DNA of 64,000 bases. Origin: Escherichia virus TH47. The notes under the pieces were generated by a model. That model did not search any database and was not told the origin of the DNA. It saw only the letters and a program-made list of their open reading frames with translations. Of this stretch, positions 1 to 64,000 are shown piece after piece (the stretch's first letter is position 1; each line of letters starts with the position of its first letter). The stretch is taken from sequence record MT446416.1, one strand, 5' to 3'. A program made the translations under genes and the position numbers.

Positions 1-302
1 CACCGTATGCACTTTCTAACTTCTCGCCAGTGTGATCATCAGTTAGTGAGTCATCCTCATAGTTCACGTCTACGCCCGTGATGTAAAACTGGCTATCGTC
101 TGGATCATTGAAATTAATTTTCTGAATGTTTACAATAACTGTATTGATTCCCAGGACACCGCCATCAGCCGTTACAAAGTACTGATAGTTTTCACAACCG
201 CCTGAATTGAAACCGTAATTAATTTCGGCCCGACCATCATTTAAACGCAGTGCCTGGGCGATGATTTCGTTTTCAAAGTTAGATTGAGCGATTGAGATCA
301 TT
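1..302 (-). CDS. hypothetical protein, C-terminus outside window
   Basis: ATG at 302 (minus) preceded by AGGAA; frame open to window edge. Confidence 0.5.
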
Positions 303-365
303 TTGTAGTTCCTTGTTTGCTTAAGATGGGACTATTATATAATAGCCCCGTTGTGTTGTCTAGTA

Positions 366-833
366 CTATTTCACGTTAATTTCAAAGTACTGCTCTTTGA
401 TGTTTTCCTGTTGGTAAATCTCGTTTAATGCTTTAAGATCTAACACCTGTTTACCTGCGGCCCGAATATACTTGTTAAGAGTCGCTAACAGCTTCTCAGG
501 CGTGTTTGTAGTCTTACGTGTTGGGATCTTATCGTGTCCCATAGCGTAGTACTGTTTACGTGGAATAGTACTGATAACGCTGCGGTACGGTTCCATGATC
601 AGCTTGTCTGTGTATTCGTCGCTATCCCCGAACTTCATACCGTGGATCGCAAAGGTCATCATCATGCGGTCGTTATCGCGGATATTGTGGGGGCAATCGG
701 CAAGCTCGCGAGTCAGTGACATAGTGATCCCCACGTCGCCACCCAGCGGTAAAGGTCGGGCGATAAAGAAACCGTTAGGGAATACTTTCAGGAAGTTTTC
801 TTGTACTGCTGCGACGAATTCGATGCTATTCAT
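366..833 (-). CDS. hypothetical early protein (155 aa)
   Basis: ORF with AAGGA RBS 8 nt upstream; promoter/stem-loop module directly upstream. Confidence 0.65.
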   Translation of the reverse strand: MNSIEFVAAVQENFLKVFPNGFFIARPLPLGGDVGITMSLTRELADCPHNIRDNDRMMMTFAIHGMKFGDSDEYTDKLIMEPYRSVISTIPRKQYYAMGHDKIPTRKTTNTPEKLLATLNKYIRAAGKQVLDLKALNEIYQQENIKEQYFEINVK

Positions 834-854
834 AATTCATTTCCTTAATTAGTG

Positions 855-913
855 GGGGAAGTTGTTTCCCCTCTCGATGAAAAACATTATACGCCAATTG
901 AGATAGTTTGCAA
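855..913 (-). promoter_or_regulatory. early promoter + 5'-UTR stem-loop module
   Basis: minus strand TTGCAA-N16-TATAAT, then hairpin GGGGAAnnnnnTTCCCC before RBS. Confidence 0.6.
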
Positions 914-1002
914 GTACTTTTTAAAAATAGTTTTCAGTACTCAATACTTATATAATAGATACACTTATGCACCCGGTGGGCTAGTGAGCTATCTCTCAAT
1001 GA

Positions 1003-1037
1003 ATATATAATAGCAAAATGGCTGACCGAAGTCAACC
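1003..1037 (-). promoter_or_regulatory. terminator-promoter cassette (copy a)
   Basis: minus-strand hairpin GGTTGAC-TTCG-GTCAGCC then T-rich tract; TTGACT inside stem serves as -35 for downstream TATTAT. Confidence 0.55.
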
Positions 1038-1048
1038 ACTTTTTTCAT

Positions 1049-1189
1049 TTATTTTTTAGCTTTTAGAATCGCCGCCTTTCGCGTCATGCCTTGCTTAATG
1101 TACTCCTTTACTTTCGCTTTACGTGCTTTCGCTTTATTTGCTTTCGTAAATGCCGAACAACTTTTATAGTTTAAACCTGTTGGATTCAT
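1049..1189 (-). CDS. small basic protein (46 aa)
   Basis: ATG directly after stop of upstream peptide gene (TAAATG); below ORF-track cutoff; followed by cassette terminator. Confidence 0.45.
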   Translation of the reverse strand: MNPTGLNYKSCSAFTKANKAKARKAKVKEYIKQGMTRKAAILKAKK

Positions 1190-1279
1190 TTAAATCACCA
1201 TAAAGAATAGATAGGTTACTAACAACGCCGCGATCAATGCACCGATCACCGCCGAACTGTAATAAGCAAATGATTTCAT
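1190..1279 (-). CDS. hydrophobic peptide (29 aa)
   Basis: ATGA start/stop overlap with upstream gene; single predicted transmembrane helix. Confidence 0.4.
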   Translation of the reverse strand: MKSFAYYSSAVIGALIAALLVTYLFFMVI

Positions 1280-1428
1280 TTTTTAGCCTGGAAGTAATGT
1301 TTAATTTGTGCGGCGGTCAGTGCACAATTTCGCAGGAAGTTTTCTGTATAACTGCGGCGAGTACTGAAAGAAAATTGACCTTTGCCGTTGCCGATAGTAA
1401 CATCAAACCGAGCGTTGTATTGTTTCAT
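1276..1428 (-). CDS. small protein (50 aa)
   Basis: ATG with GGAGA RBS; first gene behind module at 1448-1508. Confidence 0.45.
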   Translation of the reverse strand: MKQYNARFDVTIGNGKGQFSFSTRRSYTENFLRNCALTAAQIKHYFQAKK

Positions 1429-1447
1429 TTTGATTCTCCTTGTATCA

Positions 1448-1508
1448 GGGAGGAACCATTTCCCCCCCCTCTATGTAAAACATTATACAGTACTGAAAAC
1501 TAATTGCA
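1448..1508 (-). promoter_or_regulatory. early promoter + 5'-UTR stem-loop module
   Basis: TTGCAA-N16-TATAAT and GGGAGGAACCATTTCCCCCC hairpin. Confidence 0.6.
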
Positions 1509-1709
1509 AGTATTATTTTCTAAAAAATGATTGTATGCTGAATCAACCACTCTTTCGATAACATACGCCAACGGCCCGTATCCAACTACATGACTACAAT
1601 AGAAAGGACTACGATTAGAATCATCGTATGCAAATACTTTTTCAGGATCTGCATCAATCACATACATATTAACCTCTAAGATGTCGATCTTATCCTGTAC
1701 AGTAAGCAT
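1500..1709 (-). CDS. hypothetical protein (69 aa)
   Basis: internal ATG with AGGT RBS directly after stop of 1711..1962; the longer ORF-track version overlaps the neighbour. Confidence 0.45.
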   Translation of the reverse strand: MLTVQDKIDILEVNMYVIDADPEKVFAYDDSNRSPFYCSHVVGYGPLAYVIERVVDSAYNHFLENNTCN

Positions 1710-1710
1710 A

Positions 1711-1962
1711 TTAATTACCTTTTTCAATGTTTGATAATTCTTCCCAAAAACTTCCCGGATCAATATTATCATAATCCCCTGTAACGTCCTGTAACGCATT
1801 CTCAGGCTGTTTAACGGCTGGGGTAGCCATAGCCATTGCCTGGACTTGTTCGACGCTATAACGCTCATATAGGCGGCATTCTTCCGGTGTTAACATAGCA
1901 TCAATGCGTTTCATTGGTTTAATGATGCTTTCAACTTCATTCAGTACTTGATTAACGTTCAT
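1711..1962 (-). CDS. hypothetical acidic protein (83 aa)
   Basis: ATG with GAGGA RBS. Confidence 0.6.
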   Translation of the reverse strand: MNVNQVLNEVESIIKPMKRIDAMLTPEECRLYERYSVEQVQAMAMATPAVKQPENALQDVTGDYDNIDPGSFWEELSNIEKGN

Positions 1963-2013
1963 GGTATAATCCTCAATATAAGCGGCCTAAATCGACCGCT
2001 AACGATGTTTTGA

Positions 2014-2283
2014 TTAATAGGTGTATGGTTGACGCTCAAACAATGATTGCACGTTGTACGCCCCGCTAATGGGCTTCGCTGGTATGTCGATCTTATATTT
2101 CTCACGCTTAAAGATAATAAAACGGCAATTGTTCTTAACATCAAAATTGATTGAACGTTCCAGGAGTTTTCCATCGTGCACAAATACAAGATAACCGCTC
2201 GCTACTTGTTTTGTAGTACTGGTTGCAACCATTGACCGCCTAACATGCGTACCTGCATCGATTAAAGTACTGATATTTTTCAT
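2014..2283 (-). CDS. hypothetical protein (89 aa)
   Basis: ATG with AGAGGA RBS; promoter-like region and hairpin upstream (2290-2350). Confidence 0.6.
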   Translation of the reverse strand: MKNISTLIDAGTHVRRSMVATSTTKQVASGYLVFVHDGKLLERSINFDVKNNCRFIIFKREKYKIDIPAKPISGAYNVQSLFERQPYTY

Positions 2284-2363
2284 TTTACTATCCTCTTAAT
2301 TTGATTTAATTTCTTTCCCCTATGCAGACACTATATCAAAGTATCTGCATAAAGTAAAGCTAA

Positions 2364-2708
2364 TTAAAGATCTTTTTTGCGTTTAACATCAGTTACCGAA
2401 CTGTAAACAGTGATATTATTGTCACGGCAAAAACGGGAAAGATAAGAACCGCGTAAAAACTCTTTACCTTCCATATTAATAACCTTGCTAAATTCTTCCA
2501 TTGCTACAGTGTCAAAGTGATCCCCATAGCCATATTGGAACGGCACGTTTACTACTTCAATAAATTCGCCATTGATTTCAACATCTACCGTTAAAGAGAA
2601 ATAAGTATTACCATAAGACGCCTGGAACCAACGCCGGGCTGCAATATGTACAACTTCAACAGAAGACAGGTTGATGTTTTGTGCTGTGATAGTGTTGATG
2701 ATAGCCAT
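2364..2708 (-). CDS. hypothetical protein (114 aa)
   Basis: ATG with AAGAGGAA RBS; module upstream. Confidence 0.65.
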   Translation of the reverse strand: MAIINTITAQNINLSSVEVVHIAARRWFQASYGNTYFSLTVDVEINGEFIEVVNVPFQYGYGDHFDTVAMEEFSKVINMEGKEFLRGSYLSRFCRDNNITVYSSVTDVKRKKDL

Positions 2709-2726
2709 TTTTTGTTTCCTCTTAGT

Positions 2727-2782
2727 GGGGGAACCATTCCCCTTGATGTAATGTATTATACTTTATCTGATTTACTTTGCAA
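2727..2782 (-). promoter_or_regulatory. early promoter + stem-loop module
   Basis: TTGCAA-N16-TATAAT; hairpin GGGGGAACCATTCCCC. Confidence 0.6.
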
Positions 2783-2790
2783 GTACTTTT

Positions 2791-3018
2791 TTAATTTAAT
2801 TCATCCAGGCAAAGGATACGTTCTACACCTAAATCAGTTAAACTAATAGACGGCACTTGATAGGTTTCAATGTATGCTACACTTGCCCACTGACCGAACT
2901 CATTAACGGCCCAGGTATCCATTGCAAAATGCAATTCCGCACCTGCCTTGTTGGTAATGACTGCAACTACTTGTTCGTTGCCAGTAGTACCAGATACGCG
3001 AGTAATGATAATAGCCAT
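2791..3018 (-). CDS. hypothetical protein (75 aa)
   Basis: ATG at 3018 downstream of module; ORF-track N-terminal extension would run through the promoter module. Confidence 0.55.
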   Translation of the reverse strand: MAIIITRVSGTTGNEQVVAVITNKAGAELHFAMDTWAVNEFGQWASVAYIETYQVPSISLTDLGVERILCLDELN

Positions 3019-3038
3019 TGTTTTGATTCCTTTTATTT

Positions 3039-3103
3039 GGAGGGGAAACTGTTTCCCCCCCTCTCGATGTAAAACATTATACGCTAATCTCTTTATAGTG
3101 CAA
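3039..3103 (-). promoter_or_regulatory. early promoter + stem-loop module
   Basis: TTGCAC-N16-TATAAT; hairpin GGAGGGGAAACTGTTTCCCCCC. Confidence 0.6.
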
Positions 3104-3253
3104 GTACTTTTTATTACTTTTTGCAAAATACTTTAAACGCTCTCAATCGCTCTATAACAACATTAACGCCACCAGCTAGGGAAATGCATCAGATATTCAG
3201 TTTAATGCGTTAGAATCGTTTCTAGGCGGTGCTGGTGGCCTGGTAAACGGTAA

Positions 3254-3282
3254 ACACAAAAAATCCCACTGTTTAAGGTGGG
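3254..3282 (-). terminator. rho-independent terminator
   Basis: minus-strand hairpin CCCACCTTAAACAGTGGG followed by T-run, just after stop of 3306..3788. Confidence 0.6.
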
Positions 3283-3305
3283 CTAGTGATTCAGTACTTT
3301 AATTG

Positions 3306-3788
3306 TTATGCTTCAACTTTGCGATGAGCTTCGATCCATTCCTCGCGAGTCAATCCGCTTTCTTTGATAGCATCCAGTACTACCGAAATGCAGTTACCAC
3401 GCACCGGAATCAGATATTCTTCCCCGTTATCAAGTACTACCGCTACACGTTCTTGAATCCATTTTTTAGGCTTAGACTCCGGCTTATCTTCCCCATACTT
3501 AACCGCCAGGGCTTTTTGTGCCATCTCGGTAACTACTTCCATATCCAGCCCATCTACTACCGCCTGGATACTTTCAATTGTTGCTTGTAGTTCTGCTTCA
3601 CGGGCCGCCTTCGCTGCTTCAATCTCTGCCGCTTTATTTGCTTGTAGTTCTTTCGCAGTACTGTAAGCGATGTTAAAATTATTGCGAACCGCTTTCATGG
3701 TATCGTTATCCAGTTCAGCCAGGATCTCTGCCGCTACGTTAGTTTCATTTGCTACCAGTGCTTTGATGAATGATTTGATGTTAGCCAT
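3306..3788 (-). CDS. hypothetical coiled-coil protein (160 aa)
   Basis: ATG at 3788 with GAGGA RBS 8 nt upstream (ORF-track start is a TTG further up); Ala/Glu/Lys-rich heptad-like N-terminal half. Confidence 0.6.
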   Translation of the reverse strand: MANIKSFIKALVANETNVAAEILAELDNDTMKAVRNNFNIAYSTAKELQANKAAEIEAAKAAREAELQATIESIQAVVDGLDMEVVTEMAQKALAVKYGEDKPESKPKKWIQERVAVVLDNGEEYLIPVRGNCISVVLDAIKESGLTREEWIEAHRKVEA

Positions 3789-3889
3789 TAGATAAATCCT
3801 CAATTAAAGTTTAGTTTACGTTCATTAGTGTATCAAAGTTTAATCGACGTGTCCAGTTTTTCGTTCGACTTACTGGCGGTCTACTTAGT

Positions 3890-3939
3890 GTTCCCCGTCT
3901 TGATGTAATACATTCTACGCCTTTTTGCGGTAATGTCAA
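3890..3939 (-). promoter_or_regulatory. early promoter (degenerate module)
   Basis: TTGACA-N17-TAGAAT on minus strand; -35 abuts the stop codon of the HNH gene. Confidence 0.5.
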
Positions 3940-4500
3940 CTATCTTTTTGAATATTTTTTAATGTATCTCATAATCGCTGGCGGTGTAGTATTATACCTT
4001 TCAGCTAGTATAATTGAGTTAGCATCATGTGAATATGGTTTATACAGTTGTATAACTTCGTTAATCTCTTTTTCAGTTAGTTTTGTCCTAACATGCCTTA
4101 TACCTTCACTCTCATACTTCACTATTTTTTTAATAGGCGTTGCGTCGTCATGTATTCCGGTATCGTGTGCGTGTATTATGTTTTCCTTTCCGGTTGACCA
4201 TTCCAAATTACTGTAATGATTATTACTTTTATTTCTATCCTTATGATTAACCTGGACTTTCTTTCTTTTTGTTTTTTGTGCCCATTCTATTTGTGCAGGT
4301 GTCGGAGGGGGTAGATAGTTGGATGCAACCAATCTTTGAACATACTCAAAATGTTTTGATTTGTCTTCTCTTACAAGCGTTAATCTATGATACCCATCAG
4401 GGCGAATTGTTGGAGAAAGAATATTACTACCATAACGCCTAACATCCCCATACTCACTAATTTCATAAAGGGGATTCTCTTTTAATTGTTTCCATTCCAT
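3940..4500 (-). CDS. HNH homing endonuclease (I-HmuI/I-TevIII-like)
   Basis: N-terminal MEWKxLK..YEISEYG..DGYHRLTL and HNH core VNHKDRNKSNNHYSNLEWSTGKEN resemble the I-HmuI family (from memory). Confidence 0.8.
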   Translation of the reverse strand: MEWKQLKENPLYEISEYGDVRRYGSNILSPTIRPDGYHRLTLVREDKSKHFEYVQRLVASNYLPPPTPAQIEWAQKTKRKKVQVNHKDRNKSNNHYSNLEWSTGKENIIHAHDTGIHDDATPIKKIVKYESEGIRHVRTKLTEKEINEVIQLYKPYSHDANSIILAERYNTTPPAIMRYIKKYSKR

Positions 4501-4529
4501 TGATTTGATCCTTTTAGTTTCTCCTTTGT

Positions 4530-4574
4530 ATTATATCACACAAAAACAAAAAAAGCCCACTGTTTAAGGTGGGC
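4530..4574 (-). promoter_or_regulatory. terminator followed by extended -10 promoter
   Basis: hairpin GCCCACCTTAAACAGTGGGC + T-run, then TGTGATATAAT and RBS of the HNH gene. Confidence 0.55.
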
Positions 4575-4581
4575 TAGTGAT

Positions 4582-4881
4582 TTATAAACAGTTAATTACT
4601 CCTGTGTGCGTTACTTTCTCAGTATCCATTACAGTGACCGAACCGCGTTTAGTACTGGCATCATAATAAATTGTTGTGCTACCTTTCGCATCTTCTTCAT
4701 GGAACGGGCCGTTTTTAAATGCTTCTGGCTGGATCTCTAGATCCTTTAAAACAATATCGCCAGTTCTTTCTTCGGTCATTGCAACAGTGCACTGAATGAA
4801 TTTTTCACTACTTACATCTAACGACGCATTAACAGCGAAAGAGGAAACAGATAAAGCCAGGGAGATGATTGCTACTTTCAT
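4582..4881 (-). CDS. secreted small protein (99 aa)
   Basis: ATG at 4881 with AAGGA RBS; N-terminal signal-peptide-like MKVAIISLALSVSSFAVNA. Confidence 0.6.
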   Translation of the reverse strand: MKVAIISLALSVSSFAVNASLDVSSEKFIQCTVAMTEERTGDIVLKDLEIQPEAFKNGPFHEEDAKGSTTIYYDASTKRGSVTVMDTEKVTHTGVINCL

Positions 4882-4901
4882 TTGATTATCCTTAGTTACC
4901 A

Positions 4902-4955
4902 GGGGAACCGTTCCCCCTATGTAAAACATTATACGCGTTTAAAAACTATTATCAA
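4902..4955 (-). promoter_or_regulatory. early promoter + stem-loop module
   Basis: TTGATA-N16-TATAAT; hairpin GGGGAACCGTTCCCC. Confidence 0.6.
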
Positions 4956-4989
4956 GTACTTTAATATAAAAGTATTTGAAAAATAATTG

Positions 4990-5018
4990 TTGACAACTGC
5001 ATCCAGTACTGGCATAAT
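4990..5018 (+). promoter_or_regulatory. plus-strand sigma70-like promoter (CCAGTACTGG class)
   Basis: TTGACA-N17-CATAAT with CCAGTACTGG in spacer; back-to-back with minus module. Confidence 0.5.
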
Positions 5019-5024
5019 ACCTAC

Positions 5025-5118
5025 ATAAAGACAAAACAGTCTCCAACCCACCGGGTGCATAGATCCGTCTATTAAATGATTCAGTACTGCAAAATAAAGG
5101 GGATCAATTGATCCCCTC
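5025..5118 (+). ncRNA. candidate small RNA
   Basis: runs from promoter 4990-5018 through CCCACCGGGTGCA box (5047-5059) to perfect palindromic hairpin GGGGATCAATTGATCCCC (5099-5116); no ORF. Confidence 0.3.
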
Positions 5119-5122
5119 TGTA

Positions 5123-5344
5123 TTACTTAGTAAGGTATAAACAGAAGTCACCTTTATTTGCTACGCCGCCAGTGTAACGCGATGAATAGTTAGAAATATC
5201 TTGTACTTCTGCTATTACCAGTGTATCATCATTCATTTCGTCGCAGAAGCAAACGGCTGGATCTTTTACGCCGATATTGTCGGCATGTTCCCGCATAGAT
5301 TTAACCAGTGCTTCCAGTTGAGAAAGAGTAGTGATATTAGCCAT
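5123..5344 (-). CDS. hypothetical protein (73 aa)
   Basis: ATG at 5344 with GAGGA RBS; terminated by hairpin 5099-5116 + T-run. Confidence 0.55.
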   Translation of the reverse strand: MANITTLSQLEALVKSMREHADNIGVKDPAVCFCDEMNDDTLVIAEVQDISNYSSRYTGGVANKGDFCLYLTK

Positions 5345-5363
5345 TGTATTTTCCTCATTACCA

Positions 5364-5422
5364 GGGAGAACCATTTCTCCCCTCTATGTAAACTATTATA
5401 CAGTACTGGAAACTAATTGCAA
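5364..5422 (-). promoter_or_regulatory. early promoter + stem-loop module
   Basis: TTGCAA-N16-TATAAT; hairpin GGGAGAACCATTTCTCCC. Confidence 0.6.
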
Positions 5423-5534
5423 GTACTTAATGGTAAGATCCGCAACGGTTGCAGTAGTTTTATTTGTTCGATCATGATGCTTACTCCTGGTTAAAGGCGG
5501 GAACCATTCCCCGCCATTGTCACAGTACTGAATA

Positions 5535-5774
5535 TTACATTCCAACCATTGCAGCACGGATCGCAGTAGTGCTATACTTGAATCCGTCCGGCGTTGTAGT
5601 AGTACCGTTGGCTTTTAATCTGCGGTACATACATTCCGCTGCAATATCTTTCGTTTTACTTTGAGCGATGCAATTTTGAGCAATCCGGTACAATGATTCA
5701 TCGTTATTGATCCAAAGGCTTACATTCCAATGAGTTTTGTTTTTGTGTCCGTTGTAAGTTTTAGTACTAGCCAT
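5535..5774 (-). CDS. hypothetical protein (79 aa), paralog of 7563..7790
   Basis: shared motif T(K)T(F/Y)NGHKNxxHWNVSLWINNDESLY and C-terminal AAMVGM; GAGGA RBS. Confidence 0.7.
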   Translation of the reverse strand: MASTKTYNGHKNKTHWNVSLWINNDESLYRIAQNCIAQSKTKDIAAECMYRRLKANGTTTTPDGFKYSTTAIRAAMVGM

Positions 5775-5795
5775 TTTTTAATCCTCTTATATAGT

Positions 5796-5852
5796 GGGGA
5801 ACTATTCCCCACCTGATGTAAAGTATTATACGCTTTTAAACTTAGTTTGCAA
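5796..5852 (-). promoter_or_regulatory. early promoter + stem-loop module
   Basis: TTGCAA-N16-TATAAT; hairpin GGGGAACTATTCCCC; near-identical to module 7153-7209. Confidence 0.6.
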
Positions 5853-5863
5853 GTACTTTTTAA

Positions 5864-6475
5864 TTAATATGCGATTGATTCTACTACGCCATCAATAACA
5901 TTGAATTGATATTCGTTACCCTCAATCAGTGCCGTAATGTTTTCAGTAGTGAATTGATCCTTATATGCATTCTCTAAATCACGGTAAAACTTGCGTGACA
6001 ATTCACGAATAGTATCAGTTAGTAGTTTCTCAAGCTCATTAACTAACGTTTCTTGTTTTGAGGTTAAATCAGTGTAAGCCGATTCAATGTACCCGCTTAC
6101 AGTGTTCTCATGCGAGTAATGGGAGTGAGATCGCTTTACACTCATCGCCAAATCATCTTCATTCAGCAGGTGACGGATTGAGCGATACTTAGTTAATGCT
6201 CTTACCTTGCGTAAAAACTTCACTGCGTCAACGTGGTCAGTACTGATTGATGCACCGTCACCCTGGGACCAAAAACCACTGAATTGTATTTCAGCGTCAT
6301 TAATGCCATATTCTGGTAGTACTGTTTCTTTATAGTATTCAATTTCACTTTCAGAAAAATAATCGTCGTTTGTGTTTTTTTCACGTTCCCGAACCAGTTC
6401 GATAGCTGACGTTTTTTGTTCTGCGTTCAATTCAGAAAAATCCATAACATAAGTAGTAGTAGTGATAGTTTTCAT
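5864..6475 (-). CDS. hypothetical acidic protein (203 aa)
   Basis: ATG with GAGGG RBS; Asp/Glu-rich; two tandem promoters upstream. Confidence 0.65.
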   Translation of the reverse strand: MKTITTTTYVMDFSELNAEQKTSAIELVREREKNTNDDYFSESEIEYYKETVLPEYGINDAEIQFSGFWSQGDGASISTDHVDAVKFLRKVRALTKYRSIRHLLNEDDLAMSVKRSHSHYSHENTVSGYIESAYTDLTSKQETLVNELEKLLTDTIRELSRKFYRDLENAYKDQFTTENITALIEGNEYQFNVIDGVVESIAY

Positions 6476-6507
6476 TTTGTAACCCTCATTCAGTAGTTGA
6501 TGTAAGT

Positions 6508-6535
6508 ATTATACGCTTTTAAAAACAATTGTCAA
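6508..6535 (-). promoter_or_regulatory. sigma70-like promoter
   Basis: TTGACA-N16-TATAAT directly upstream of 5864..6475. Confidence 0.55.
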
Positions 6536-6586
6536 ACTATTTTATCAGGGGAGTTTTTCGTATGCCTTACTCCTGGGCTACTCAAC

Positions 6587-6653
6587 GGGGAGTTACTTAT
6601 TTCGTTCCCCGTCCTGATGTAATACATTATACGCCGTTAAACATAGTATGCAA
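6587..6653 (-). promoter_or_regulatory. early promoter + stem-loop module (second, tandem)
   Basis: TTGCAT-N16-TATAAT; hairpin GGGGAGTTACTTATTTCGTTCCCC; no ORF between it and the next promoter. Confidence 0.5.
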
Positions 6654-6696
6654 GTACTTTTTAAAATAGTTTTCAGTACTGAATAGTAAAAAGGTA

Positions 6697-6725
6697 TTGA
6701 CAGCACTATCCAGTACTGGCATAAT
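6697..6725 (+). promoter_or_regulatory. plus-strand promoter (CCAGTACTGG class)
   Basis: TTGACA-N17-CATAAT; followed by CCCACCGGGTGCA at 6747-6759. Confidence 0.5.
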
Positions 6726-6840
6726 ATACCCCATGACAACAGCTAACCCACCGGGTGCACAATTGTAACTGTACTAAACTACTTTTTCTATAGATACACT
6801 CCCGCACCCCGTGGGCCAAATTGTTCGTTTCAATAGATAC

Positions 6841-6869
6841 ATTATGCCAGTACTGACAAAATAAGTCAA
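6841..6869 (-). promoter_or_regulatory. minus-strand promoter (CCAGTACTGG class), convergent with 6697-6725
   Basis: TTGACT-N17-CATAAT on minus strand; followed by inverted CCCACGGGGTGCGG box (6804-6817). Confidence 0.5.
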
Positions 6870-6899
6870 TACTGGCAATTGTAAAGATTTGTAAACTAC

Positions 6900-7130
6900 T
6901 TATACTGCAATCGCGTCCAGGCTATAATAATAATAAGTGCCGTATTGGTGTACTTTATTACCTTTTATTTCAGTACTGAATGAATCCGAACGATTAGCAT
7001 ATGATGTTAATTTAAAGTACTTTGCTTTACTAATACGTTGCCATACACCGCAGATCCGCTGTAAGTAAGTAGTTTTATTAGTGGTAGTATCTTTTACGGT
7101 TTTAACTTCGGTCATATACATATTAGCCAT
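6900..7130 (-). CDS. hypothetical protein (76 aa)
   Basis: ATG at 7130 with AAGAGGA RBS; module upstream. Confidence 0.6.
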   Translation of the reverse strand: MANMYMTEVKTVKDTTTNKTTYLQRICGVWQRISKAKYFKLTSYANRSDSFSTEIKGNKVHQYGTYYYYSLDAIAV

Positions 7131-7152
7131 TTTTTTAATCCTCTTATGTAGT

Positions 7153-7209
7153 GGGGAAGTATTCCCCATCTGATATAAAGTATTATACGCTTTTAAACTT
7201 AGTATGCAA
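7153..7209 (-). promoter_or_regulatory. early promoter + stem-loop module
   Basis: TTGCAT-N16-TATAAT; hairpin GGGGAAGTATTCCCC. Confidence 0.6.
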
Positions 7210-7217
7210 GTACTTTT

Positions 7218-7481
7218 TTATAGTACTGCAATCTTTTTAGTACGGTACACGGTAACGCGATTGCCCTTGCGGTCGTGCTTTATTTCTACTACTCGCCGCG
7301 ATACACTATCAGGACTTTTTAACGCCGCCAACCAGTACTGTAAAGATCTGGCTTTACTTTGCTTTACTACCGCCCAACGTTTACCACGTTCCGATTGTCC
7401 GCCCATATCTTTAAACGTCGCCCCGTCCAGACGTGCGGCGATCCGTGCTTGTTCACGCGTCACAAAGTACATAATATTCAT
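7218..7481 (-). CDS. hypothetical basic protein (87 aa)
   Basis: ATG start; promoter-like TTGCAC...TATAAT upstream. Confidence 0.55.
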   Translation of the reverse strand: MNIMYFVTREQARIAARLDGATFKDMGGQSERGKRWAVVKQSKARSLQYWLAALKSPDSVSRRVVEIKHDRKGNRVTVYRTKKIAVL

Positions 7482-7562
7482 GCTGTTACCCCATCGTTGA
7501 CGTATAAAAGAAATCTATTATAAAGTACTATCACCGTGCAATAGTACTTTAAATATATTCTA

Positions 7563-7790
7563 TTACATTCCAACCATCGCCGCACGCACGCTTGATTTGC
7601 TATAACGTGCCCCATCAGGCGTGTGAGTACCTAAAAGGCGTAACATCCGCTCAACCGCTTTATCTCGCGTGTTGGTGCTTTTAATACTTTCCAGGGCCAA
7701 TTGGTACAGTGATTCATCGTTATTGATCCAAAGGCTTACATTCCAATGGTTGTAGTTTTTATGGCCGTTGAAAGTTTTAGTAGTAGTCAT
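7563..7790 (-). CDS. hypothetical protein (75 aa), paralog of 5535..5774
   Basis: paralog motifs as above; AAGAGGAA RBS. Confidence 0.7.
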   Translation of the reverse strand: MTTTKTFNGHKNYNHWNVSLWINNDESLYQLALESIKSTNTRDKAVERMLRLLGTHTPDGARYSKSSVRAAMVGM

Positions 7791-7810
7791 TTTTAATTCC
7801 TCTTAAGTGC

Positions 7811-7870
7811 AGCGGGAACCATTCCCGCTCTCGATGTAATACATTATACGCTATTTGATAGTACTGTCAA
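7811..7870 (-). promoter_or_regulatory. early promoter + stem-loop module
   Basis: TTGACA-N16-TATAAT; hairpin AGCGGGAACCATTCCCGCT; about 50 nt identical to module 8270-8330. Confidence 0.6.
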
Positions 7871-7883
7871 ACTAATTTTTAAC

Positions 7884-8246
7884 TTATTCGTAAATTTTGC
7901 CACTGTCAGCCCATACCAGGAAACGAGGCATATTATCCCATGCATCTTGTTTTAAATTTAAACCGTGTAATACTTCTGTACTTTCCATTCCTGGTACTGG
8001 TTTACTATACACCGCGAACATTTCACCCATATACTGATAAGCCATCGTTAAATCACTGGCGATCATCTTATGGATCATCGCATCAAGCATCACGGTAGCG
8101 GCGTATTGTTCACGCTTAAGCGGCAACATTGCAATAAGTCCACGATAAGCTGAAATGTGAATTTTTACCGTTTCTGCCGGAAGATCTTTCATCTCGTCGC
8201 GGAAGTTAACCAGGTTAGCAATAATTTTATTGATTTGTGTCGCCAT
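7884..8246 (-). CDS. hypothetical protein (120 aa)
   Basis: ATG with RBS; module upstream. Confidence 0.65.
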   Translation of the reverse strand: MATQINKIIANLVNFRDEMKDLPAETVKIHISAYRGLIAMLPLKREQYAATVMLDAMIHKMIASDLTMAYQYMGEMFAVYSKPVPGMESTEVLHGLNLKQDAWDNMPRFLVWADSGKIYE

Positions 8247-8269
8247 CGTTTTTAATCTCTCTTAAAGTG

Positions 8270-8330
8270 CAGCGGGAACCATTCCCGCTCTCGATGTAAT
8301 ACATTATACGCCGTTAAACATAGTATGCAA
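8270..8330 (-). promoter_or_regulatory. early promoter + stem-loop module
   Basis: TTGCAT-N16-TATAAT; hairpin AGCGGGAACCATTCCCGCT. Confidence 0.6.
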
Positions 8331-8380
8331 GTACTTTCTACAAATACTTTTAAAATAGTTTTCTTTCTATATAGGGGAAC

Positions 8381-8432
8381 TATCTTTCAGTACTATCTTT
8401 CAGTACTATCATTCAGTACTATCATTCAGTAC
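8381..8432. repeat. 4 x 13-bp direct repeat TATC(T/A)TTCAGTAC
   Basis: four contiguous units read directly. Confidence 0.85.
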
Positions 8433-8596
8433 TGAATCAATCCACTAAATCATCCCTATACCCCGTAAAACGGCCTCAGACGCATTCTAACGCATTAATA
8501 CACCTAAGCTATACATTTGCACCATTCCAATCATTCCAGGGCTTTACGGGCCGTTGAAACGCGTTAAATTATTTTCAATTATTTTGTTTTTAGGTA

Positions 8597-8624
8597 TTGA
8601 CTTGATCCTGAAAAAGCGTATAAT
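8597..8624 (+). promoter_or_regulatory. plus-strand sigma70-like promoter
   Basis: TTGACT-N16-TATAAT; CCCACAGGGTGCGG box about 30 nt downstream. Confidence 0.5.
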
Positions 8625-8813
8625 TACTACATAAGCCGGACACAAGGCACTAACCCACAGGGTGCGGAATTACGCCCAAAATTCAAGATATAAAAAAAGG
8701 ATACACTCCCGCACCCTAGCAGGTCAACGCACTTTCTCAGTACTGAAATATAGTACCATAGTACTTGCCAGGATAGCAAGCAAATTAATTAAAACTTTTT
8801 TGCTTCCAGGGTA

Positions 8814-8841
8814 TTGCTTTATTTTTTCAGTACTGTATAAT
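8814..8841 (+). promoter_or_regulatory. plus-strand promoter
   Basis: TTGCTT-N16-TATAAT; CCCACCGGGTGCA box at 8870-8882. Confidence 0.45.
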
Positions 8842-8937
8842 AGTTTCATCAAGTCGAGAAAGACTCAAGCCCACCGGGTGCATAGTTACGCCCAAAATTC
8901 AGTACTGAAAAAATTTTTAAAATATCTGTCCAGGCCG

Positions 8938-8966
8938 TTGACATTGCCCCCAGTTTATAAGATAAT
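8938..8966 (+). promoter_or_regulatory. plus-strand promoter
   Basis: TTGACA-N17-GATAAT; two GGGGAA...TCCCC-type hairpins downstream. Confidence 0.45.
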
Positions 8967-9059
8967 GATTCCAGATTCAGAAAAATCTAACTCCAGATAC
9001 TGCGGGGAAACTATCCCCACGCGGTAGGGGAACTATTGGAAAAAACAAAATAAAATTTT

Positions 9060-9200
9060 GATTTAGCCGTCTATACTTCCAGACGTGTAACCATCTAGCC
9101 GTTTAGCCGTCCAAACGTCTAGCCATCCAGCCATCCAGAAATCTAGCCGTTTAGCCGTCTAGATGGATAGCCATCTTTACTTCCATACTTCTGGAGGTCT
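9060..9200. repeat. iteron cluster (TAGCCRTY x about 9) with CCAAAATCC repeats just downstream
   Basis: tagccgtc / tagccgtt / tagccatc units within about 130 bp, interleaved with tctaga-type palindromes. Confidence 0.8.
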
Positions 9201-10099
9201 AGACATATCTACGTCCAAAATCCACCCAGGGTTACTACACCCAAAATCCGTCAGTACTATACCATAGATCTATCTTTTGAAAGGGAGTATTCAGTACTGC
9301 CATCATAGCCCTCACTATGTTACCCTAGGAGGATGAAGACTATCATGTAGTACTGAATACTGTTAGAGGGAATCCACCAGCTTGTGCTGGTGGCATAATG
9401 CTTTAGATTAAAATCAGTACTGACACCATTCTGTTAATATCAGTACTGTTATTACGATTTTCATATGAGGTTCAAAAAGATGTACCACCACAGGAGGAAC
9501 TATCTTTTCTGTACTGTCTCACGACAGGAGGTAGAGTAAATGAATTGTTCGCAGCAACTCATCTCTCTATGTAGAACATTATACAGTACTGAATCATAAT
9601 GTCAATAACTTTCTTTCACCATTCAGTACTGATATTCTTGAGAACTACCCGTCTACAAACATCATTATATCCCACAAATCATAAACGTCCCAACGTAAAT
9701 TTCAACTTTCGAAGATCCAACTTTTATTTCATAGGTACTCCAAAATTTTTAGGATCGAGATTTAGGATGGAGTACTAACCAACTTTTTGCTGGAGCCTCA
9801 AGGGGTAATTGAATTTTACCCCGAAGGGTAAAAGGGTAATTGAAATTAAGGTGAAAGTAATAATTCAGTACTAATCATTGCGTGATTACTTTTGATTACA
9901 TTTGATGTAATTTGCAAAATGGAAAAGGAGCTTGGAAACTAAAAAGTACGGTAGACTTCCTCTGCCTACTTAGTGGGATATCGACACCTTCAGTACTGAA
10001 TACTTTTGGGGCAGTACTGCTACGTTCTTGATTAAACGTGCACATTCCTGTACTCTATTACACTCTAGTACTCACTACTGATCAGTACTGATCACTACA

Positions 10100-10150
10100 G
10101 TGATTATAAATGATTACTTAAATGTTTATATATGATTACTTATGATTACT
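10100..10150. repeat. ATGATTACTTA direct repeats (3 copies)
   Basis: read directly. Confidence 0.7.
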
Positions 10151-10154
10151 TATG

Positions 10155-10175
10155 ACAAAGAGAAGCCAAAAGCTT
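10155..10175 (-). terminator. terminator of small-gene array
   Basis: hairpin GAGAAGC-nnnn-GCTTCTC followed by T-rich tract on minus strand. Confidence 0.5.
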
Positions 10176-10312
10176 CTCTGTAGAGTTACGGGGTTTAGCC
10201 TGGAGAGAATCCTAGTGATCGCATTTGTCCAGGCTGAATTTTAACAATTCGCCTGTACATAAAGGTTGTTCACTAGGAGCTTCCCCAGTCTCTATGTGCT
10301 CTATATGTTGAA

Positions 10313-15577: not shown

Positions 15578-15585
15578 TAATAGGT

Positions 15586-15616
15586 CAGTACTGAAATATG
15601 TACTGGTATTTTTTGT
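15586..15616 (+). terminator. candidate terminator
   Basis: CAGTA...TACTG hairpin followed by T-run. Confidence 0.4.
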
Positions 15617-15654
15617 AAATACTATATAATTATTTTAATTTTGGAGATTTAATC

Positions 15655-16824: not shown

Positions 16825-16832
16825 AAAGAAAA

Positions 16833-16862
16833 GCCAGTACTTGATACTGGCTTTTCTTTTTG
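16833..16862 (+). terminator. rho-independent terminator
   Basis: GCCAGTACTTGATACTGGC hairpin + TTTTCTTTT. Confidence 0.65.
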
Positions 16863-16897
16863 TATTAAATATAGTATAATGAATAAAGGAGGGAATT

Positions 16898-18007: not shown

Positions 18008-18021
18008 TACTATAAAACTAT

Positions 18022-18051
18022 GCCAGTACTTGATACTGGCTTTTCTTTTTG
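18022..18051 (+). terminator. rho-independent terminator
   Basis: same GCCAGTACTTGATACTGGC hairpin + T-run. Confidence 0.65.
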
Positions 18052-18085
18052 ATTAAATATAGTATAAAGAATAAAGGAGGGAATT

Positions 18086-21629: not shown

Positions 21630-21658
21630 GCCAGTACTTGAGTACTGGCTTTTCTTTT
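21630..21658. terminator. bidirectional terminator
   Basis: GCCAGTACTTGAGTACTGGC hairpin flanked by T-run, between convergent genes. Confidence 0.6.
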
Positions 21659-23510: not shown

Positions 23511-23517
23511 AATTAAT

Positions 23518-23548
23518 CCAGTACTATAATAGTACTGGATTTTTTATT
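23518..23548. terminator. bidirectional terminator
   Basis: CCAGTACTATAATAGTACTGG hairpin + T6. Confidence 0.6.
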
Positions 23549-23918: not shown

Positions 23919-23919
23919 T

Positions 23920-61207: not shown

Positions 61208-61612
61208 TCATCTTCCTCGTAGGTTTCTGGCAATTTCAAAGATACCATTAATGTTGTCAACTGTCAATCCACACATATCGTATACAGTAGATAGCTGAAA
61301 GAACATATCTTCATCTATAGTAACATGTTCAATCTGCATTTGCAAGAGCACTTCACCAAGAAAATGATCGTATGTTTGTATCTTAAAAGAATCATAATAT
61401 ATATCAATGAAGAATTTTGGCACACCATAGAACGAAACGACAAGTACAATGTTGTCAGAAGCTTCACATGGAACACTCAATGTATTTTTAAATGAACGGT
61501 ATTCAAATGTGTACGGGTCCACGTCACATGTATAGAATGAACTACACCCTTCAGAAAATATTACACCATTTTCAATTAGCATAGATAGTGCATGTGGTGG
61601 AATTTTCAACAT
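61208..61612 (-). CDS. FQYS-family protein (134 aa)
   Basis: C-terminal IDEDMFFQLSTVYDMCGLTVDNINGIFEIARNL. Confidence 0.55.
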   Translation of the reverse strand: MLKIPPHALSMLIENGVIFSEGCSSFYTCDVDPYTFEYRSFKNTLSVPCEASDNIVLVVSFYGVPKFFIDIYYDSFKIQTYDHFLGEVLLQMQIEHVTIDEDMFFQLSTVYDMCGLTVDNINGIFEIARNLRGR

Positions 61613-61620
61613 TTCAATGT

Positions 61621-62037
61621 TTATCCTTTATTTTGTTGTACGTTATTATGTAGTACACCACAAATATAAAATAATTTACTTAGATTAGAATAACTTATGT
61701 TAGTTAGATCGTATACGAAATTTAGTTGCATATACATATCTTCAGTTAAATCATACAATGATTCGTCCACATCAATTACAATTTTCTTTGTAGTGTCAAT
61801 CTCTACTTTATTAGGCCATACATCAATAACATAATCATCACCATGTTTTTCAGATATGGAAATGAAAACATTATCGCTTTGTTCTAAAAACTCCATGTAT
61901 CCGTTAAGAAATGATCCAGTTATTATCTCATATTCACCAGAATGATACGTTGTTCTGGACTCAAATTCATTTAAAAATATCAAACGATATGTTTGGTTGA
62001 TATACTCATCAATTAAACTAATAACTTCTTTATTCAT
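61621..62037 (-). CDS. FQYS-family protein (138 aa)
   Basis: start MNKEVISL at 62037 with GGGGA RBS; C-terminal ESLYDLTEDMYMQLNFVYDLTNISYSNLSKLFYICGVL. Confidence 0.5.
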   Translation of the reverse strand: MNKEVISLIDEYINQTYRLIFLNEFESRTTYHSGEYEIITGSFLNGYMEFLEQSDNVFISISEKHGDDYVIDVWPNKVEIDTTKKIVIDVDESLYDLTEDMYMQLNFVYDLTNISYSNLSKLFYICGVLHNNVQQNKG

Positions 62038-62766
62038 TACATTAATCCCCACAAGAAAAAAGGCCGATTCATAATGAATCAGCCTTAAGTATAACACAGT
62101 AGAAGTAAAAATGTCAACTTCTAAAATACAGTATCAAAGAGGAATAAAAAAGATACTGTTAGAGGGTAACGAATATAATGAACCATGAGGGTGATATCAT
62201 TATACTTTAAAAGAGTGATAGCTTCTAGACAAAAGGAGGAATTCAGTACCGACTAGAAGCTATCCGGTTAAACGATTTCAGTACTGAATGTTTAGTTTAG
62301 GATGAGTATGTCCATCTTCGATTTGCTTTAGAATCGAGTCGCGGATCTCCACTGCACCCTGATAACTGTATTTATCGTTCGGAACTACCCATGTATATTC
62401 ACCATCAGTGGTTTTAAAATCAATACATGGATTGTCTCTGTATTCAGATGCAATGATTGATATAACATGCAATGAATTCAATGAATGATTTGTATAAGGA
62501 TAATTGTTATTGTCTCGGAACGTGAATGTTTTTAGTTCATCAGGTGCAACAATAAATTCCATTATTCATCCTCGTACTTCTTGAATGGTGGAACATCTAC
62601 CTTGAAGTCTTTGCACATCTTAGTTGCACGAACTTCAGTATTGTTGTGGTAATTTTTATTAAATTCATAAGAAACATAATTACGAATACCAGGTGTATGA
62701 ATAATAGCAAGAACCAATGTACGACCAAATAAGCATAACAAATTCAAAAACATATTAAGCTCCGAG

Positions 62767-63126
62767 TTATGGATTAATCAAACGACACATACCAACTATA
62801 ACATTTATCTCTTCTAATGTCAAGTCACCAATGTCATTTATCATTGAGTACTGGAATAATGACTCTTCTGTGTACTCAAAATCACGTACTGCTATAAAAA
62901 TTGGCTCCTTAGAAACATCTAATGTTATCTTAGCCATTGTACTATATAAATCAAATTGATACAAAATATTAGGAGAAGTATATGCTATGTATATATTATT
63001 ACATTCTGATGGATGTACCAGTGTGAATCCATCATAACATAATATTTTTATGTTAGGATCATCAAAATTACCAGTATAAAGATTCTTACGAACATCTTGC
63101 ATTATACAAGTTATTAAACTAGTCAT
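62767..63126 (-). CDS. FQYS-family protein (119 aa)
   Basis: C-terminal EESLFQYSMINDIGDLTLEEINVIVGMCRL. Confidence 0.6.
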   Translation of the reverse strand: MTSLITCIMQDVRKNLYTGNFDDPNIKILCYDGFTLVHPSECNNIYIAYTSPNILYQFDLYSTMAKITLDVSKEPIFIAVRDFEYTEESLFQYSMINDIGDLTLEEINVIVGMCRLINP

Positions 63127-63535
63127 TAAACGGATTTAGAACCTCTTCTGGAATTAATCTTTGAACTTTAAGTATAGCATTAATGTCCTCAAATGTCAAT
63201 CCATTTAGATCGTTTACGAGACAGTACTGAAAGAATTTTTCTTCAGTATCTATATCGTCAAAATTCAATTCAATTCTAGTGTCAATATAATCACTATTTA
63301 CATTAGCAATTCTGATTTTAACTCGTTCAAAATACACATCAAATGAATAAAAATGATCATTGATTTCATAACCAAGAAAAATATTAAAACATTTACTCAA
63401 ATCAGTGGTTTCGTTCAAATCGCCATCATAGCAAAAAACTCTAACTTCACCAATATCTTCTAATTGTACATCATGCAGTGACCATGCGTTGTTTTTTAAT
63501 ACGTAGTTCACCATTTTAACAATGTTGTATTTCAT
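63119..63535 (-). CDS. FQYS-family protein (138 aa)
   Basis: C-terminal EEKFFQYCLVNDLNGLTFEDINAILKVQRL. Confidence 0.6.
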   Translation of the reverse strand: MKYNIVKMVNYVLKNNAWSLHDVQLEDIGEVRVFCYDGDLNETTDLSKCFNIFLGYEINDHFYSFDVYFERVKIRIANVNSDYIDTRIELNFDDIDTEEKFFQYCLVNDLNGLTFEDINAILKVQRLIPEEVLNPFND

Positions 63536-63552
63536 AGTGTACCTTAAAAAAT

Positions 63553-63960
63553 TTATTTACGATTCCTTGCGGAGTTCTTGTTCCTCGCTCTGAATGTTGG
63601 TGTCATCGAATGACAATTAGGGCAAAGGATTTTTAAATTCGGTAGGTCATTATTTGTAGCATCACCATCAATGTGCTCAACTTCTGTCAGTACTGCACCA
63701 TCAACTGGGTGACGTTTATCCCATCCACATTCTTCACATGCAGTTCCGCGTGTTTCATGTAGATATCTTCTCACAAATGGGCATAACTGTATGGTAATAC
63801 CTTTATATCCAGGATGTTCACCGTTAAGCCATTTATCAACTTTCTGTTGATATTGTAGCTCTTGTTGACATGCAACACTACAATATTTTGTTTGGCCCTT
63901 TCGAACCAATTCAATTTTACAACATGTACAATAACGTTTTTCTTTCATATAGTTCTCCAT
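63553..63960 (-). CDS. HNH endonuclease (135 aa)
   Basis: HIDGDATNNDLPNLKILCPNCH core plus N-terminal CxxC pairs. Confidence 0.7.
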   Translation of the reverse strand: MENYMKEKRYCTCCKIELVRKGQTKYCSVACQQELQYQQKVDKWLNGEHPGYKGITIQLCPFVRRYLHETRGTACEECGWDKRHPVDGAVLTEVEHIDGDATNNDLPNLKILCPNCHSMTPTFRARNKNSARNRK

Positions 63961-64000
63961 ATATTATGGAGTATTTATATGTAAGAAAAATATCATTTTT

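Follow-up and report, generated by a model that had tools for sequence, protein, structure and literature searches.

A dense AGTACT palindrome together with the absence of GCGC is found in RaK2/121Q-like jumbo phages and in an unrelated prophage lineage of Enterobacterales

The DNA described in this report is a stretch of 64,000 nucleotides of Escherichia virus TH47 (MT446416.1), given as one strand from 5' to 3' and called the window below, and our subject is the palindromic hexamer AGTACT, the recognition site of ScaI, which is spread over its whole length. The window is ~97% identical to phages EC.P1, WPEC3, BF17 and fEgEco12 and ~84% identical to PBECO4 and 121Q, identities that place it in a jumbo Escherichia coli myovirus of the Asteriusvirus group. 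Gene models are our own greedy open reading frame (ORF) calls, which gave 133 ORFs and a window that is 87% coding. Relatives were sampled as pieces of 15 to 50 kb, the exception being PBECO4, for which 340 kb were assembled from pieces L002, L003, L013, L001, L014, L016 and L017. The left physical end of fEgEco12 DNA has been mapped by PhageTerm and by restriction digests (PMC13070987). It aligns in reverse orientation at window position ~9970, and window positions 1 to 9970 are therefore the start of a direct terminal repeat of ~21 kb; the DNA past ~9970 is unique sequence ahead of the right-hand repeat.

AGTACT occurs 228 times in the window, once per 281 bp. In 100 dinucleotide-preserving shuffles of the window the count was 21.3 ± 4.5, with a maximum of 33, and Markov models of order 0 and 1 predict 21.7 and 21.1 occurrences (observed/expected, 10.8 at order 1). 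The ratio falls to 5.2 at order 2 (44.2 expected), 2.6 at order 3 (87.7 expected) and 1.2 at order 4 (189.9 expected) because AGTAC and GTACT already hold the signal, and not because of composition. The word ranks first for over-representation among all 4,096 hexamers of the window; no other palindromic hexamer exceeds 1.6-fold, and many are depleted. All 4-kb bins lie above expectation, with 4 to 35 sites against ~1.3. The 340 kb of PBECO4 hold 868 sites against 96 expected (9.1-fold), or one per 392 bp. An initial annotation of the window had judged the hexamer far too frequent, had taken this as the opposite of restriction-site avoidance and had proposed a Markov-based count as a check. The count, at ~21 expected, bears out both points: the ratio stays far from 1 after correction for composition, and a ScaI-type target that avoidance would make rare is over-represented here 10.8-fold in the window and 9.1-fold in PBECO4.

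The bases around the hexamer are arranged symmetrically. C precedes it in 47% of sites and G follows it in 48%, T stands at -3 (48%) and its complement A at +3 (43%), and G is depleted directly before the hexamer (6 to 10%). AGTACT is the core of a 12-bp palindrome, TTCAGTACTGAA, which is present in seven exact copies in the window (6672..6683 and starting at 6969, 8425, 8898, 9989, 28060 and 62277), five of them no more than 3.4 kb from the genome end, and in 15 copies in PBECO4. The preferred half-site, TTC-AGT, makes up 11 to 12% of half-sites and does so equally in coding and intergenic DNA. Variants with one mismatch in the hexamer are found at 0.4- to 2.5-fold, compared with 10.8-fold for the exact word, and recognition of the core would therefore be near all-or-none. 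The information content of the motif peaks at the dyad. Information centered in this way is typical of restriction/modification enzymes and of ribbon-type binders that use one major groove, and less so of helix-turn-helix dimers; it would point to a reader of the restriction/modification or ribbon type. Two flanked forms had been singled out as frequent in the initial annotation, of which CAGTACTG is indeed common, with 58 copies, and CCAGTACTGG is rare, with 3.

Most of the sites lie in genes. ORFs contain 178 of the 228 (78%; 17 expected; 3.2 per kb), 48 are intergenic (3.2 expected; 5.75 per kb) and 2 fall on ORF boundaries. The coding sites use all three codon phases (77/40/61). When synonymous codons were shuffled within genes, coding DNA retained 53 ± 6.5 occurrences, and when the order of codons was shuffled it retained 25 ± 5, against the 178 observed. 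Both nulls lie so far below the observed count that codon choice and amino acid order must be bent towards AGTACT, and codon or dipeptide bias was rejected as its source. PBECO4 gives the same picture, with 727 of its 868 sites coding and a profile along genes that is flat apart from a dip where translation begins (ribosome-binding site and start codon) and a rise of ~2-fold in the 40 nt past stop codons. Distances between sites are close to Poisson, with a modest excess of pairs 11 to 25 bp apart in the early region, and the spacing distribution shows no helical phasing. A model of paired sites in the manner of a LexA box (CTG-N10-CAG), which needs pairs spaced by 18 bp, was rejected, there being no peak at 18 bp. 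The genic location, the use of all phases and the flat profile together identify AGTACT as a genome-wide word rather than a promoter or terminator element.

Comparison with relatives gives further evidence of selection. In the 28 kb that align with PBECO4 at 87% identity, AGTACT is intact at 110 of 140 window sites (79%), compared with 54% of all hexamer windows and 55% of flanking ones (p = 8e-9), and the excess holds in coding and in intergenic DNA separately. Three orthologue pairs between the window (6 sites) and RaK2 (12 sites) have a single site position in common. Enrichment nevertheless persists across genera with almost no DNA similarity, so that positions turn over and density is kept. 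This fits a large number of weakly selected sites with a cumulative effect, selection acting on density and not on position, and in this AGTACT behaves as do words of the Chi or DNA uptake sequence (DUS) type, that is, as a dispersed, over-represented oligomer under density selection. Density is highest in the non-coding region around the genome end (8247..10312), with 22 sites in 2,066 bp, and most of the long palindromic forms are also found there, including the TTCAGTACTGAA copies at 8425, 8898 and 9989. AGTACT is thus a strongly selected, symmetric word that acts at the level of DNA, dense throughout and most so at the genome end.

Promoters, terminators and repeats account for a minority of the sites: about 22 to 25 of the 228 are in promoter-like contexts, at two different positions, and ~6 are in hairpin stems. 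Ten sites abut a -35-like TTGC and ~12 lie directly upstream of a good -10. The first arrangement includes TTGCAAGTACT (five copies; ten TTGCA-type -35 neighbors in all) and is found in eight near-identical, strong early promoters on the minus strand, in which AGTACT extends from upstream into the -35. One of these is at 886..918 (A-tract, AGTAC-TTGCAw, spacer, TATAAT and a 5' hairpin, GGGGAAnnnnTTCCCC), and the AGTACT of the other copies is at 2782, 3103, 5422, 5852, 6653, 7209 and 8330. The promoter at 5395..5427, on the minus strand, has two sites, that at 5422 on the edge of the -35 and a second, at 5402, directly upstream of the -10 (AGTACTGTATAAT). This second arrangement, AGTACT-N-TATAAT, recurs at 1489, 7524, 8829, 9585, 32887, 44232 and 48191. 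On the plus strand, a promoter-like TTGACA-N17-CATAAT at 6697..6725 has a spacer ending in CCAGTACTGG, where AGTACTG supplies the TG of an extended -10, and it has a twin at 4990-5018. The eight early promoters (840-8340) each have a full A/T tract resembling an UP element and stand ahead of a small ORF, and the hairpin GGGGAAnnnnTTCCCC just past their start site is transcribed and conserved.

Two predicted intrinsic terminators on the plus strand, each followed by a U-run, carry AGTACT in both arms of the stem: one after an RCC1-like gene at 21630..21649 (stem GCCAGTAC/GUACUGGC, -13.2 kcal/mol, z -4.4) and one after the last RCC1-like gene at 23515..23541 (12-bp stem, -15.7 kcal/mol, z -5.5). 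On the minus strand, a hairpin at 9415..9448 (-17.8 kcal/mol) has a 14-bp stem made of two CAGTACTG copies. A 13-bp unit, ATC(T/A)TTCAGTACT, is repeated in tandem at 8379..8433 on the plus strand in four copies with one AGTACT each, and the last copy is a 14-bp perfect palindrome, ATTCAGTACTGAAT. The initial annotation had placed the word in -35 regions, promoter spacers, the stems of the RCC1-gene terminators and these direct repeats, and in each it is present. What did not stand is the claim that these places define its distribution, since 178 of the 228 sites lie inside ORFs: the word has no fixed place relative to -35 and -10 such as a sigma-70 promoter element would have, and two or three hairpins do not make it a terminator stem. 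The broader suggestion of a functional site, for which that annotation named a protein-binding site, a modification target or a recombination signal as examples, agrees in its general form with the codon nulls, the conservation and the retention across genera. The predominance of genic sites and the 12-bp extension are new with respect to that annotation, as are the absence of GCGC and the recurrence in unrelated prophages, described next.

GCGC is missing from the window (0 against 41 expected), and every RaK2/121Q-like phage sampled combines this absence with abundant AGTACT. PBECO4 has AGTACT at 868 against 96 and GCGC at 0 against 176. For the other members, AGTACT enrichment and observed/expected GCGC are 12.9-fold and 0/7 in RaK2 (Klebsiella), 14.9-fold and 0/17 in CBB (Pectobacterium), 11-fold and 0/20 in EJP2, 7.3-fold and 0/14 in JNE01, 7.1-fold and 0/10 in Yersinia phage fHe-Yen9-04, and 6.7-fold and 0/15 in XaC1, recorded as a Xanthomonas phage. 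The range of 6.7- to 14.9-fold, with GCGC at zero throughout, thus covers Asteriusvirus, Alcyoneusvirus, Mimasvirus, Eneladusvirus and the unclassified XaC1. In distant jumbo relatives, AGTACT is absent or at chance: PA5oct has 0 against 6.1 expected, XacN1 0 against 4.1 and Atu_ph07 2 against 2.5. The coliphage phi92 also has none (5.7 expected). GCGC is near expectation in PA5oct (14/18) and Atu_ph07 (27/28) and moderately reduced, to 0.5- to 0.6-fold, in XacN1 (34/67) and phi92 (9/15). Summed over nine signature-free phage samples, AGTACT itself is depleted (8 against ~36 expected), and the ~900 sites of a signature-bearing genome are therefore presumably covered or modified. The host is composed in the opposite way. 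One 50-kb segment sampled from E. coli K-12 has 3 AGTACT, 342 GCGC and 240 GATC, so that in this sample AGTACT comes once per ~17 kb and GCGC once per ~150 bp, whereas the phage has an AGTACT every ~300 bp and lacks GCGC.

Other words are purged from these genomes as well. PBECO4 lacks dozens of type II palindromes, among them CCATGG (0/45), TGGCCA (0/41), GCATGC (0/38), CTGCAG (0/34), GGTACC (0/30), GGATCC (0/28) and GTCGAC, and it lacks the asymmetric words GGTCTC/GAGACC and CTCCTC/GAGGAG. Such losses indicate DNA under selection of the restriction type, which makes a 9-fold excess of ScaI sites the more striking. In the same 340 kb, Chi of E. coli (the octamer GCTGGTGG, counted with its complement) occurs 21 times against 2.3 expected (~9-fold); CACCAG and TGCTGG are also ~3-fold enriched, and the Chi excess may partly reflect codon patterns.

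Within the window, three paralogous, mobile-looking zinc-ribbon genes (treble-clef; DUF4379, DUF723 and CapR), annotated as endonucleases in relatives, depart from the general AGTACT density. Located at 26896-28044, 29729-31252 and 37624-38808, they contain 3 sites in their 3.9 kb, where 12 would be expected (p = 0.002), and GCGC is still absent from them. The second and third have no counterpart in the PBECO4 alignment and look like recent insertions relative to that phage, and the PBECO4 counterpart of the first, gp306 (an annotated endonuclease), is too diverged to align.

The same two-word signature is found in phages that are unrelated to the jumbo phages. A search of IMG/VR with the 14-mer ATTCAGTACTGAAT returned 120 loci, all of which were scored. 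About 30 have AGTACT at 9- to 30-fold, each with no GCGC where up to 26 were expected. A single cluster provides 21 of these ~30 loci, as contigs of 26 to 35 kb with a GC content of 0.40 to 0.43. These are prophages, carried by Leclercia, Phytobacter, Enterobacter and Escherichia sp., with a lambda-like terminase, portal and protease-capsid and a long tail fiber, and their proteins have no similarity to PBECO4 ORFs at E < 1e-8. In this family of ~33-kb prophages, of each of which ~22 kb was sampled, AGTACT is enriched 10- to 18-fold, and GCGC is absent from most of the sampled loci, a few having short GCGC-bearing islands. The flanks of the prophage sites resemble those of the jumbo phages, with 54% C and 8% G at -1 and 44% T at -3. 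An Enterobacter bugandensis prophage (L212) shows a sharp boundary: it is AGTACT-rich with one GCGC, and the adjoining host DNA has no AGTACT and 25 to 37 GCGC per 2 kb. The pairing of dense AGTACT with missing GCGC therefore characterizes two unrelated phage lineages of Enterobacterales and is opposite to the composition of the host.

Within the prophage family the signature comes and goes. The members with terminases only 41 to 45% identical to the query fall into two sets: L213 and L194-196 carry it, and L211, L193 and L198-201 do not (AGTACT 0 to 3, GCGC 42 to 72), so that the family forms a natural presence/absence panel. The jumbo phages and the prophage lineage have no core genes in common. 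They do have in common a tail protein of 930 to 950 residues, 50% identical over 950 residues between PBECO4 gp063 (L002:41226-44015) and a prophage (L194:17611-20466), which argues for shared hosts and gene exchange.

We read AGTACT as a selected, genome-wide self label, present at the level of DNA and read by a strictly sequence-specific, symmetric factor; we would give this reading a probability of about 40%. Dense AGTACT and absent GCGC would together form a label, written in sequence only, that separates phage from host DNA. The reader would be a symmetric protein that the infection produces or brings in, be it an enzyme of the restriction/modification kind or a small dimeric binder, and it would mark, shield or organize the phage DNA; a nuclease at work in the infected cell would destroy DNA containing GCGC. 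The minority of sites in promoters (-35 edge and spacer) and terminators might reflect use of the same factor for regulation or the mere abundance of the word. More doubtful, in our judgment, is the full scheme of self/non-self discrimination by sequence alone, in which GCGC-containing DNA is destroyed and the phages are spared for having none, the AGTACT label, read by a second factor, licenses, protects or organizes phage DNA, and the prophages either own the system or mimic its code. If it is true, prophages with the same code would possess the same transferable system or would copy the code to survive or exploit infection by jumbo phages. T4 separates self from host DNA by modified bases, and phiKZ-like phages enclose their DNA in a protein shell. 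RaK2/121Q-like phages use neither way, and a label encoded in composition would be a third route.

Several results weigh against this reading. A Pfam scan of 132 window ORFs found no family of the helix-turn-helix, ribbon-helix-helix, DNA-binding or restriction/modification kind. A phmmer comparison of the jumbo-phage ORFs with the sampled prophage DNA returned mobile and tail genes and a few small ORFs as the genes common to both lineages. Of the two methyltransferases of PBECO4, the first is Dam-like (PF05869) and the second a short DNMT3-like C5 enzyme; both seem to be otherwise accounted for, as Dam-like and CpG-like activities, and a homologue of the C5 enzyme that is 51% identical is present in phi92, which has no AGTACT. 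The nuclease specific for GCGC is a postulated one, what ties GCGC to AGTACT is their co-occurrence, and biased gene conversion could mimic both the conservation of sites and their enrichment.

Single genes were also considered as candidates for a determinant. A mobile 214-residue protein, encoded on the minus strand at 50553-51197, has no Pfam hit and is annotated as an HNH endonuclease or DNA-binding protein in other phages. It shares 39% identity with a protein encoded by the signature-bearing prophages and follows the signature among prophage loci, being present in 24 that have it and in none of 13 that lack it. It was rejected as the determinant because it is missing from PBECO4 and from all the 97%-identical relatives and because its family is widespread, in 1,503 diverse phage records. 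Genes common to signature-bearing prophage groups A and B and lacking from group C are a superfamily 2 (SF2) helicase-like protein and small ORFs, a comparison that is confounded by the mosaicism of modules. Full-text literature searches turned up no mention of AGTACT enrichment or of GCGC absence for these phages and no ScaI digestion, SMRT or nanopore results on AGTACT, and the genome papers of CBB, RaK2, phAPEC6, Sharanji, fEgEco12 and MIJ3 do not mention the motif.

The alternatives have to be weighed against the same observations. Of these, we consider phage-directed DNA modification unlikely, though less so than the rest: AGTACT would be methylated or given another group and, as GATC does through Dam, SeqA and MutH, would provide an epigenetic mark, here one of the phage's own, that also shields the ~900 sites from ScaI-type enzymes. 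Strict recognition of a hexamer is what restriction/modification enzymes do, the spacing of one site per 280 to 390 bp is near that of GATC in the E. coli sample (one per 208 bp), the depletion of AGTACT in signature-free phages suggests that restriction pressure on the word exists, and the jumbo clade encodes two DNA methyltransferases. CpG methylation has been reported for RaK2 DNA, as has its resistance to all but methylation-insensitive enzymes (PMC3622015), and this resistance speaks for modification; against it, digestion of fEgEco12 DNA with 10 enzymes, a set without ScaI, produced the fragments predicted (PMC13070987). The preference extends over 12 bp (TTC...GAA), unusual for a methyltransferase with a 6-bp site; where sites have been lost between the window and PBECO4, C-to-T changes are not in excess; and the sampled parts of the prophages contain no methyltransferase. 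The Dam-like and DNMT3-like types of the known enzymes, the CpG methylation of RaK2 and the case of phi92 make these enzymes less likely readers of AGTACT. Improbable, in our view, is a Chi-like signal that switches off a nuclease or helicase and so lets linear phage DNA survive while host DNA is degraded; being palindromic, it would act in both directions and on either strand. Dispersed sites selected for density, a density peak beside the physical DNA end where exonucleases enter, the co-occurrence with GCGC absence and the opposite abundance in host DNA would all suit such a signal. Known Chi sequences, however, are asymmetric, we know of no cognate nuclease for AGTACT, and the ~9-fold enrichment of E. 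coli Chi in PBECO4 suggests that RecBCD may already be handled.

About as improbable is the absence of any function, with a mutational or repair bias, such as biased gene conversion of the very-short-patch type in heavily recombining genomes, driving sequences towards AGTACT. A drive would yield apparent conservation and enrichment in all codon phases, and deamination of CpG on both strands turns GCGC into GTAC, CpG being mildly depleted (rho 0.76 to 0.79). The one-step neighbors of AGTACT are not depleted as donors would be (0.4- to 2.5-fold, mostly above 1), neither palindromic flanks nor a peak at the genome end is predicted by a drive, and the same word arose in two unrelated lineages. Double deamination of GCGC was rejected as the source, since the expected GCGC pool (176) is far below the AGTACT excess (~770) and the sister words CGTACG and GGTACC are absent and not enriched. 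We give still less weight to a host protein common to Enterobacterales, such as the nucleoid-occlusion factor SlmA, that the phages titrate or exploit, which would explain why two unrelated lineages infecting one host family share the word and its flanks. The SlmA site, GTGAGTACTCAC, is a 12-bp palindrome with the same central AGTACT (PMC3020112). Its consensus, GT(R)AG(Y)(R)CT(Y)AC, requires G1, T2, A4 and G5 and a purine at position 3 (PMC3020112), whereas the phage flanks are T, T and C, with G at -1 in only 6 to 10%, so that required outer positions (G1 and the purine at 3) are the disfavored ones. GTRAGYRCTYAC has no match in the 404 kb formed by the window and the 340 kb of PBECO4, and the SlmA site was rejected on both grounds. 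In other phages that infect these hosts AGTACT is missing or avoided, and the distances within site pairs are not those of LexA boxes. Least credible of all is that AGTACT serves in the main to build promoters, terminators and RNA hairpins, or acts as a self-complementary RNA motif. The 10 sites next to TTGC, the ~12 just upstream of a -10, the three strong hairpins with AGTACT in both arms and the ~2-fold bump after PBECO4 stop codons do speak for such uses. As the main explanation it was rejected, because 78 to 84% of sites are genic, the profile along genes is flat and all codon phases are used; close pairs capable of forming a stem are also rare and near Poisson outside the early region.

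The self label that we prefer has partial counterparts among known genome-wide words, and the AGTACT/GCGC signature is a phage-borne, palindromic two-word variant of the kind represented by HIP1, by uptake sequences and Chi, and by GATC. HIP1 of cyanobacteria, GCGATCGC, is an iterated palindrome that is found in all frames, changes position between species and is of unresolved function. Like AGTACT it is a short perfect palindrome, enriched many-fold in coding and non-coding DNA at one per few hundred base pairs and in all frames. HIP1 differs in being an 8-bp word of cellular chromosomes, where AGTACT is a 6- to 12-bp word of phage genomes, coupled to the loss of GCGC and to an opposite host composition and with no cognate methyltransferase evident; GCGATCGC itself and a cyanobacterial genome are not what is found here. 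A word of the HIP1 type would also be expected to go with a cognate methyltransferase; two methyltransferases are present here, nothing observed links either to AGTACT, and phi92 has the C5 homologue without the motif. DUS, the related uptake signal sequences (USS) and Chi are likewise genome-wide oligomers, present inside genes and under weak selection for density, and a single machine (ComP or RecBCD) uses them to tell own from foreign DNA. They are asymmetric words of 8 to 12 nt in bacterial chromosomes, unlike AGTACT, which is palindromic, and as such has no orientation, 3 to 20 times denser and phage-borne. GATC, read by Dam, SeqA and MutH, is a palindrome of similar frequency (one per 208 bp in the E. 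coli sample, against one per 281 to 392 bp for AGTACT) and a possible genome-wide mark, although it is only 1.35-fold enriched in that sample and is under-represented, at 0.67-fold, in this phage. Restriction-site avoidance is a parallel in the type of word, AGTACT being a type II site in genomes that purge dozens of other palindromes, and is reversed in direction, at 9- to 15-fold enrichment.

Whatever its reader, the two-word signature narrows the search to one or two factors in a pool of hundreds of uncharacterized proteins. By this simple test such phages and prophages can be recognized in metagenomes, and the signature predicts diagnostic behavior of their DNA on digestion with ScaI or HhaI. 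It also advises caution in engineering, since cassettes containing GCGC or recoding of AGTACT may cripple these therapy candidates.

Other features of the window were noted in passing. Repeats of TGATTAC(T/A)T with a period of ~10 bp lie on both sides of the genome end (9883-9915 and 10101-10155), and the non-coding end region contains ~19 tandem 8-bp units (TAGCCGTY-like iterons) at 9068-9219, which could be a replication or packaging element. There are two tandem arrays of paralogues: seven RCC1-like beta-propeller genes on the plus strand at 14456-23510 and seven genes for proteins of ~105 to 125 residues, back to back on the minus strand at 23547-25986. A phage sigma factor is predicted on the minus strand at 51281-52246; sigma-70 regions 2 and 3 were matched and region 4 was not detected, which would suggest promoter recognition independent of the -35. 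An unannotated non-coding element at 50325-50450 on the plus strand is conserved at ~80% identity in four genera that otherwise have no DNA similarity, with its counterparts all on the minus strand (L005:12466-12590, L009:9405-9528 and L008:9140-9268). Transfer RNA and Rfam scans gave no matches for this element or for the rest of the 64-kb window. It has invariant blocks, TAAGGTGCGATCCTTATATGTCTATC and GCCGCATTGCCGTG, and a stem with compensatory changes, and is a candidate structured RNA.

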